A DNA stretch of 64,000 nt, taken from the sequence record OQ973471.1; one strand, 5' to 3'. The position numbers and the translations under genes were made by a program. Under the pieces are notes generated by a model that ran no database searches, was not told the origin of the DNA, and worked only from the letters and a program-made list of their open reading frames with translations. The stretch's first letter is position 1. Every line of letters begins with the position of its first letter. This document shows positions 1,204 to 1,420 of the stretch, piece after piece. This stretch comes from Escherichia phage AV101.

Positions 1204-1420
1204 AATTACGGGCGTGACTTCCTGAAGAGTTAGAAGATGTGCATGTCGACTCTCTCGTAATCGGGGTGTTTAGGAAGTTAAGAAAATCGCGGCGAGGATA
1301 GTGAAATGCAAATAACTTTCTCTACGTCGACGACTTCAGGTTCGACTCCTGACGCGCTCTCCCATAGGGTAGTACCAGTGCAAGCGTGTAGTCTTTCAAC
1401 CCATCCCATCGATGTGGTAT

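Follow-up and report, generated by a model that had tools for sequence, protein, structure and literature searches.

The stretch of DNA analysed here, 64,000 nucleotides (nt) of Escherichia phage AV101 (OQ973471.1; hereafter the window), carries an operon of transfer RNA (tRNA) genes whose last unit lies at 1210-1364 on the plus strand. We posit, with a probability of roughly 70%, that this unit is a gene of its own for a tRNA-shaped non-coding RNA of 155 nt, matured by ribonuclease P (RNase P) into a stable tRNA mimic. Judged by sequence comparison, it is a new, previously unannotated and covariation-supported RNA family of the Ackermannviridae, and by the same evidence the site is an RNA fold maintained by selection and no remnant in decay. 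The parts of the predicted RNA, all on the plus strand, are as follows.

1210-1364, plus strand: whole tRNA-shaped RNA gene, 155 nt (covariance model R1, alignment A1, consensus fold, covariation)
1210-1216, plus strand: 5' strand of the acceptor stem, GGGCGUG, with 1353-1359 as its partner
1218-1277, plus strand: 60-nt composite arm in the D position (alignment, consensus fold, covariation)
1218-1223/1272-1277, plus strand: helix P2, 6 base pairs (bp), invariant
1228-1233/1250-1255, plus strand: helix P3a, 3 pairs with compensatory changes
1236-1238/1245-1247, plus strand: helix P3b, 1 pair with compensatory changes, closing the invariant loop GUGCAU (1239-1244)
1259-1270, plus strand: D-loop-like single strand AAUCGGGGUGUU with the conserved motif AAUC-GG-GUU
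1278-1286, plus strand: A-rich single-stranded linker UUAAGAAAA, 9 nt, largely conserved in the alignment
1287-1333, plus strand: second long arm P4, 47 nt, pairing 1287-1289/1331-1333 and 1291-1294/1325-1328
1336-1352, plus strand: canonical T-arm UCAGG / UUCGACU / CCUGA (direct reading, covariation, pattern count)
1353-1364, plus strand: 3' strand of the acceptor stem, CGCGCUC (1353-1359), then the tail UCCCA (alignment, covariation)

A preliminary description of this site, made from the letters alone, had reported a T-arm TCAGG-TTCGACT-CCTGA at 1336-1352 followed by CGCGCTC, and direct reading confirms both (UCAGG at 1336-1340, loop UUCGACU at 1341-1347, CCUGA at 1348-1352). It had also called the arm an orphan and placed the feature at 1281-1364. 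There is indeed no acceptor partner at the canonical tRNA distance, but the arm is not orphaned: GGGCGUG (1210-1216) pairs with CGCGCUC (1353-1359) at 7/7 bases, through five Watson-Crick and two G-U pairs that show compensatory changes in relatives, and this strand sets the true start of the feature at 1210. The distance from CGCGCUC back to this 5' partner is 136 nt, where a tRNA would have about 58 nt, which is why it was missed both by that first reading and by the tRNA finders. The 7-bp acceptor stem directly abuts the 5-bp T-stem (loop UUCGAYU), and the two form a 12-bp minihelix as in tRNA. The tail has a U73-like discriminator followed by CCC in place of CCA; CUCUCCC is invariant across all fetched copies, and the sequence downstream of it diverges. 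The window has six matches to the T-loop pattern GGTTCRANYCC where 0.66 are expected (none of 100 shuffles reaches six), and five of the six matches fall inside the tRNA cluster at 230-1364, in four tRNAs and in the T-arm at 1336-1352. The sixth, at 63771-63781 (GGTTCAAGTCC), reads as coding sequence without tRNA context and looks like a chance match.

The consensus fold was obtained with RNAalifold from alignment A1 of 14 sequences, and pairs were then counted on the named structure. It comprises four arms in a cloverleaf-like arrangement, with 37 pairs in the RNAalifold consensus, 11 of which show compensatory changes. On the named structure 97.6% of cells are paired, a figure that drops to 44-46% once the 3' partners are shifted by 1-3 columns, and 12 pairs are doubly changed (one in the acceptor, three in P3a, one in P3b, five in P4 and two in the T-stem). 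The covariation score is 0.344 against 0.177 in shuffles; no shuffle attains this score or the percentage of pairing, and the number of doubly changed pairs is attained by 2/500. All cells of the acceptor helix are paired, with C-G or U-A at position 4 and alternation between G-U and Watson-Crick pairs at positions 2 and 6 (GGGCGUG/CGCGCUC, GAGUGUG/CGCACUC and GGGUGCG/CGCACUC among relatives). P4 consists of 3+4 bp around an internal loop; it is likewise paired in 100% of cells, five of its seven pairs are doubly changed, and its inner helix appears as GGCG/CGUC, AGGA/UCCU or AGAA/UUCU. The group to which the window belongs has a 2x2 mismatch within P3a. The G-U pairs are compatible with the plus strand only.

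The apex of P4 carries the invariant sequence GUGAAAUGCA and a possible stem at 1303-1306/1317-1320, and two nt separate P4 from the T-arm. The apex loop measures 10-12 nt, and in the alignment and consensus fold no register yields a 7-nt anticodon loop; without an anticodon loop, the RNA cannot decode. The loop GUGCAU of P3b is complementary to AUGCA(A/C) in the P4 apex (UGCAU/AUGCA, extended to 6 bp in Klebsiella phages) and both sides are invariant, which hints at an internal kissing contact. Only open reading frames (ORFs) of 25-43 amino acids overlap the unit, and the lengths of its copies (151-156 nt) differ by non-multiples of three, so that we regard it as non-coding.

The window derives from an Ackermannviridae (Vi1-like) phage that is 95-96% identical to Enterobacter phage fGh-Ecl02 and to several E. 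coli phages. A sensitive BLAST search with 1204-1450 returned 228 phage records, and the unit is carried by about 200 Ackermannviridae records of the genera Kuttervirus, Agtrevirus and Taipeivirus. Absence of the motif from related genomes had been named by the preliminary description as a refutation, and the motif is present in roughly 200 of them. Matches in Kuttervirus and Taipeivirus typically end at query position 161, which corresponds to window position 1364 and thus to the end of the unit; 19 Dickeya Limestonevirus records match the downstream stretch 1365-1448 only. Each of 13 loci fetched from the three genera holds one copy of 151-156 nt, and model R1 scores 170.6 bits for the window unit and 150-184 bits for the homologues. 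The unit was also found in three more Klebsiella Taipeivirus-type phages and in 13-14 further genomes of about 155 kb in IMG/VR, all of them Ackermannviridae. It is absent from Limestonevirus LIMEstone1, whose tRNA content is a single tRNA-Met, and from Serratia phage IME250, though tRNAs and conserved spacer sequence are kept in both. In the annotated records whose feature tables were inspected the unit bears no annotation, and a few place hypothetical ORFs over it. In the literature library searched, no paper joined 'tRNA-like' with Ackermannviridae, and the titles listed included no transcriptome paper on Ackermannviridae phages.

Outside phages, E. coli genomes gave no match, and among one genome each of 185,579 bacterial species the unit occurred on a single 607-bp contig. 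This contig, NZ_JAALLN010000140.1 of 'Flavobacterium poyangense', holds a near-identical copy (R1 165.7 bits) and is probably Ackermannviridae phage contamination. One other pattern match from the scan of bacterial contigs was not recognised by model R1. A metagenome scan with the loose pattern GTGAAATGCA-N-GGTTCGA gave chance matches and no new family member among the matches listed. A tRNA-like RNA of about 152 nt was seen on two marine metagenome contigs (L064, 1946-2097, minus strand; L134, 1223-1374, minus strand), with the acceptor AGGAGAA/UUCUCCU, the T-arm GAGGG-UUCGAGU-CCCUC and one long arm that forms a three-way junction. It lies after a TATAAT-rich stretch and has GUGAAAUGCAUAUA(G/A)CU in common with the P4 apex of the 1210-1364 RNA; with R1 scores of only 14-17 bits it is probably unrelated.

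The unit is the last of the tRNA operon, which is composed as follows; the tRNAs were called by ARAGORN and the Rfam tRNA model.

199-227, plus strand: strong sigma-70-type promoter TTGACA-17-AATAAT, 11/12 consensus matches
230-306, plus strand: tRNA with CAU anticodon
478-553, plus strand: tRNA-Asn
811-894, plus strand: tRNA-Tyr
1115-1203, plus strand: tRNA-Ser(GCT), ending in CCA
1421-1451, plus strand: intrinsic terminator, a 9-bp GC-rich hairpin at 1421-1441 and then a T-run, closing the operon

No terminator-like site was found on the plus strand between the promoter at 199-227 and position 1421. The spacer AAUUAC of 6 nt separates the CCA of tRNA-Ser from the unit, and in the loci whose positions were compared the gap from the last tRNA or pseudo-tRNA is 6-10 nt. 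About 55 nt lie between the unit and the terminator. The stretch from the unit to the end of the terminator (1365-1448) shares about 88% identity with Limestonevirus phages of Dickeya, in which the unit itself is missing, and within this stretch ATGTGGTATAG at 1412-1422 is a near repeat of ATATGGTATAG at 457-467, the latter resembling an extended -10 box before tRNA-Asn. The tRNA content of the cluster differs among relatives (Met, Trp, Asn, Gln, Ile-like, Tyr, Ser). Kuttervirus loci hold an extra pseudo-tRNA ('tRNA-OTHER') between tRNA-Ser and the unit, at 1401-1489 of the FSL SP-063 locus and 501-586 of the SFP10 locus, which is absent in the window; that of FSL SP-063 is a neighbour of the 155-nt unit and distinct from it. 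The tRNA coordinates in KC139523.1 (FSL SP-063) are off by about 60-70 nt against ARAGORN, with tRNA-Ser annotated at 1379-1467 of the locus and found at 1309-1397.

A confident intact tRNA call here would, by the preliminary description, have refuted it, and there is none: ARAGORN with default settings and the Rfam tRNA model make no call at 1204-1450. Neither ARAGORN (default, intron, mitochondrial and relaxed settings) nor Rfam (gathering threshold and E<=10) gave a credible tRNA, transfer-messenger RNA (tmRNA) or other family at 1204-1364, and a permissive Rfam scan (E<=10) of 1-1600 placed no family over 1235-1367. Very relaxed ARAGORN settings produced a poor 69-nt 'tRNA-Glu' with mismatched stems, or a sub-threshold 'intron' artefact. 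With a canonical tRNA (RF00005) the unit shares the 7-bp acceptor, the 5-bp T-stem with a UUCGAYU loop abutting the acceptor strand, a D-loop-like AAUC-GG, its place in a tRNA operon and a tRNA-like spacing. It differs in length, 155 nt instead of 70-95 nt, and has no anticodon arm with 5-bp stem, 7-nt loop and U33; the D arm is replaced by the 60-nt composite, the anticodon and variable region by the 47-nt arm, and CCA by CCC.

The acceptor/T-arm module of the unit resembles that of other RNAs which engage tRNA-handling enzymes in this manner, such as the tRNA-like domain of tmRNA, YrlA/Y RNAs and RNase P-processed mimics (PMC11143913). tmRNA differs from the unit in being a three-way junction and in its tag ORF and pseudoknots. 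In YrlA the termini of the RNA lie in the Ro-binding stem and not in an acceptor stem. The permissive Rfam scan gave no match to tmRNA, YrlA/Y RNA or a similar family, the library being assumed to hold a tmRNA model.

On this basis we propose how the RNA might arise and act. The promoter at 199-227 would drive its transcription together with that of the tRNAs, and RNase P would cleave the 5' end of the RNA at G1210. Position 1210 has candidate features of an RNase P substrate, namely U or C at -1, G at +1, a 12-bp stack and a U73-C74-C75 tail. Bacterial RNase P makes use of these features and of the T-loop. Processing of non-tRNA substrates with tRNA-like structure by RNase P is known (PMC11143913). 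The 3' end would be trimmed by the tRNA 3'-end machinery, and the CCA-adding enzyme may make UCCA from UCC. The CCC tail does not disqualify the unit, because trimming and the addition of CCA also mature those T4 tRNAs whose genes lack it (PMC11143913). The invariant GG of AAUC-GG, resembling G18-G19, could dock on the T-loop to form a tRNA elbow, and the product may build up as a stable small RNA in the way that RNA C of T4 does. The shape made by acceptor, T-arm and elbow could then be bound by a protein of the host or the phage, with the two special arms giving specificity, and the RNA would serve as a decoy or modulator. Mimicry of tRNA is the most likely mode of action, and the function is the weakest step of the proposal.

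Several other explanations have to be weighed against such a tRNA mimic. The preliminary description had left three options, of which the tRNA-like structure was the right one, given a whole unit that is kept in three genera with covarying pairs. Its main reading was a decayed tRNA, that is, a functionless pseudogene or remnant whose 5' half has drifted away. The failure of the tRNA finders and of the Rfam tRNA model on the unit agrees with this, as do the degenerate tRNA-like pieces of the cluster (313-417; 'tRNA-OTHER' pseudogenes of Kuttervirus) and the varying tRNA content of related phages. A drifting remnant would not hold its helices through double substitutions, however, and what we observe is a complete 7-bp acceptor stem and a full 155-nt unit that three genera retain, with 12 compensatory pairs, pairing in 97.6% of cells and long invariant motifs in the loops; the covariation contradicts decay. 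We consider decay very unlikely, and give as little credence to the remaining option, an intron-containing or otherwise expanded tRNA that is still functional and chargeable, for example a derivative of tRNA-Cys. The 3' 28 nt of the window copy do resemble E. coli tRNA-Cys in a local alignment (score 32, with glyW and leuZ at 14), a U discriminator is typical of tRNA-Cys and tRNA-Gly, and the UGCAAAU of the P4 apex holds GCA. This likeness is confined to the group of the window, since scores fall to background in the Kuttervirus and Taipeivirus copies (22 and 17). No register offers a 5-bp stem and 7-nt loop around GCA, the tail is CCC, and the copies of Klebsiella phages have C on the 3' side of GCA, where position 37 of a tRNA needs a purine. 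An intron-containing tRNA has one intron in its anticodon loop, and a cloverleaf is restored when it is removed; the unit has two separate structured expansions of about 45-60 nt, in the D and the anticodon/variable positions, and no intron or tRNA model of Rfam matches. The introns of bacterial and phage tRNAs belong to group I, for which the two inserts are far too short. The related idea of a phage attachment site (attP) or a 3' fragment of a host tRNA was rejected: E. coli genomes gave no match, the 185,579 bacterial species sampled by one genome each hold no copy other than the 607-bp contig, and the tRNA-Cys likeness is weak and limited to one group.

The most serious alternative, which we still hold to be improbable, is a cis-acting structure at the 3' end of the operon that aids processing, stability or termination and is not a trans-acting RNA. 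The unit is always last before the terminator, and a tRNA-like 3' cap could protect the polycistronic precursor or help to process it. Limestonevirus and IME250 keep tRNAs and spacer sequence without the unit, however, so that it is not required in cis; it lies about 55 nt from the terminator, and the invariant loops GUGCAU, GUGAAAUGCA and AAUC-GG exceed the needs of a protective hairpin. The same long invariant unpaired motifs would suit a base-pairing regulatory small RNA, one that tRNA enzymes do no more than cut out and whose conserved single-stranded loops target mRNAs of the phage or the host; 3'ETS-leuZ, cut from an E. coli tRNA operon according to its record annotation, offers a precedent. 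Complements of the P4 apex or the P3b loop are not beyond chance in the window, E. coli genomes gave no match in a search that is insensitive to short seeds, and the mutual complementarity of the two loops suggests an internal kissing contact instead; we rate this as a slim prospect. Least probable, to the point of being hardly credible, is a miniature tmRNA-like molecule or a decoy for SmpB. The acceptor and T-arm of the unit resemble those of the tRNA-like domain of tmRNA, and the unit family has the 11-mer GTGCATGCCGA in common with nt 41-51 of E. coli ssrA, at a similar distance from the 5' end. This 11-mer is imperfect in the window copy and barely beyond chance, with 4-8 of 200 shuffles equalling it, and identification as tmRNA was rejected: pair 3:70 is G-C where tmRNA has G-U, there is neither a tag reading frame nor a pseudoknot, ARAGORN calls no tmRNA, and no model matches.

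The closest counterpart of the proposed tRNA mimic is rnaC of phage T4. The tRNA cluster of T4 ends with rnaD and then rnaC ('species 2' and 'species 1' RNAs), and rnaC, of 139 nt (NC_000866, 70908-71046), is its last gene, placed 6 nt after the preceding RNA. It is a real RNA on Northern blots (PMC9697503), and reviews and recent papers still call the function of RNA C and RNA D unknown (PMC3014915, PMC9697503, PMC12685909). We folded rnaC and aligned it with four divergent homologues from VR7, CIP9, myPSH1140 and phiR1-RT. Over these five T4-like phages, 94.3% of cells are paired against 37-43% with slid partners, and 11 pairs are compensatory. The acceptor, counted over seven positions from the true ends, is CGAUUCG/CGUUUCG in T4, with two U-U oppositions, and the fully Watson-Crick CAGUCCG/CGGACUG in phiR1-RT. 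It is abutted by a canonical T-arm, CCGGG-UUCGAAU-CCCGG. The remainder consists of a D-position arm of about 70 nt, an A-rich linker of 8-10 nt, a 10-bp hairpin that ends 1 nt before the T-arm and a short non-CCA tail, without an anticodon loop. The copy of CIP9 has an altered T-loop, UGCAUGC.

The two RNAs thus have in common the terminal operon position, the 6-nt gap, a similar size, the acceptor stacked on a T-arm, a long D-position arm, an A-rich linker (UUUUAAAAAU in T4, at the same place as 1278-1286 of the unit), a second hairpin 1-2 nt from the T-arm, a short tail other than CCA and the lack of an anticodon loop. Both phage families belong to the order Pantevenvirales according to the record taxonomy. 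Outside the T-arm there is no detectable sequence homology; the arms are of other lengths and shapes and carry other conserved motifs, and T4 has rnaD beside rnaC. By its architecture we regard the unit as an analogue of T4 rnaC and at most a very distant relative, with membership in one family unproven.

Some observations weigh against our interpretation of the unit as a stable, RNase P-matured mimic of the rnaC type. Covariance model R2 of rnaC gives the unit 10.4-14.7 bits, compared with 10-15.6 bits for true tRNAs, and model R1 gives rnaC 20.4 bits in the wrong register; homology between the two cannot be claimed because these reciprocal models score no better than for ordinary tRNAs. The CCC tail is unique to the unit, all others of the operon ending in CCA, and maturation of its 3' end in the manner of a tRNA is not assured. 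The minimum free energy of the single sequence is unremarkable (z = -1.14), the evidence for the fold being comparative, and P2 and the P4 apex never vary, so that their pairing is a plausible prediction. Between genera the unit is about 71-79% identical against 93-97% for neighbouring spacers, and this faster evolution could reflect weaker constraint. Transcription, processing sites and stability of the RNA are all inferred, and its binding partner is putative.

RNA C and RNA D of T4 were recognised as stable RNAs about 50 years ago. The unit provides a second phage family with an unannotated RNA of the rnaC architecture, in the same operon position and with strong support from covariation, which suggests that closing a tRNA operon with an over-sized tRNA mimic may be a device that recurs among phages. 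The Vi1/CBA120-like phages of Salmonella, E. coli, Shigella and Klebsiella are a medically used family, and they offer a second, genetically tractable system for such RNAs, with Limestonevirus and IME250 as natural variants without the RNA. Since tRNAs are what many recently described anti-phage systems act upon, it is a good moment to ask what such RNAs do. For annotation, our results correct the spurious ORFs placed over the unit in some records and point to a unit that the tRNA finders miss.

The 155-nt RNA is not the only conserved unit between the tRNAs. The spacers at 554-810 (in segments) and 895-1114 are 93-97% identical to Klebsiella or Serratia Taipeiviruses, a comparison in which the 155-nt unit reaches about 71% and the neighbouring protein about 40% amino acid identity. 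They fold into conserved units with compensatory changes and have no Rfam match (E<=10, 1-1600).

313-417: degenerate tRNA-like piece directly after the first tRNA, ending in ..CCCCGCCA
559-664 (approximate): unit with the closing stem GGGUGUG/..CGCCC, then ACCA
671-729: hairpin
737-806: long hairpin, then CCA
895-1110: multi-hairpin unit ending in ..GUCCA

With the exception of the 155-nt unit, the units of the operon, tRNA or not, end in NCCA followed by a short A/U-rich spacer (4-6 nt after the spacer units), and T4 rnaD likewise ends in ..GCGCACCA. The operon as a whole resembles a chain of RNAs that tRNA-processing enzymes set free. A broader, improbable reading would make the Ackermannviridae cluster an operon of tRNA mimics, in which 4-6 true tRNAs are joined by at least five conserved non-tRNA units (about 313-417, about 559-664, about 671-806, 895-1110 and the 155-nt RNA, each with an acceptor-like closing stem). 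Released by RNase P, these might divert or absorb, as decoys or sponges, the host immunity effectors whose targets are the acceptor ends or the body of tRNAs, or they might hijack tRNA-processing enzymes, and T4 RNA C and RNA D would follow the same strategy.

The piece at 313-417 is 87-99% conserved in several genera; it has a tRNA-like 5' half, GGGGCGAUAGUUUAAUGGAUAGC, and a T-arm-like hairpin, UGAGG-UGAAAAG-CCUCA, and only four acceptor pairs are possible. Within the 895-1110 unit, the last hairpin, at 1064-1105 (GGGCU..CAAUCGGGUGUGA AGCCC), carries the D-loop-like sequence AAUCGGGUGU, and its layout and motif match those of the P2/P3 arm at 1218-1277 (CUUCCU..GUAAUCGGGGUGUUU AGGAAG), a resemblance which suggests a shared module. 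Model R1 also gives weak matches of 18-25 bits to a spacer hairpin plus the following tRNA in several loci.

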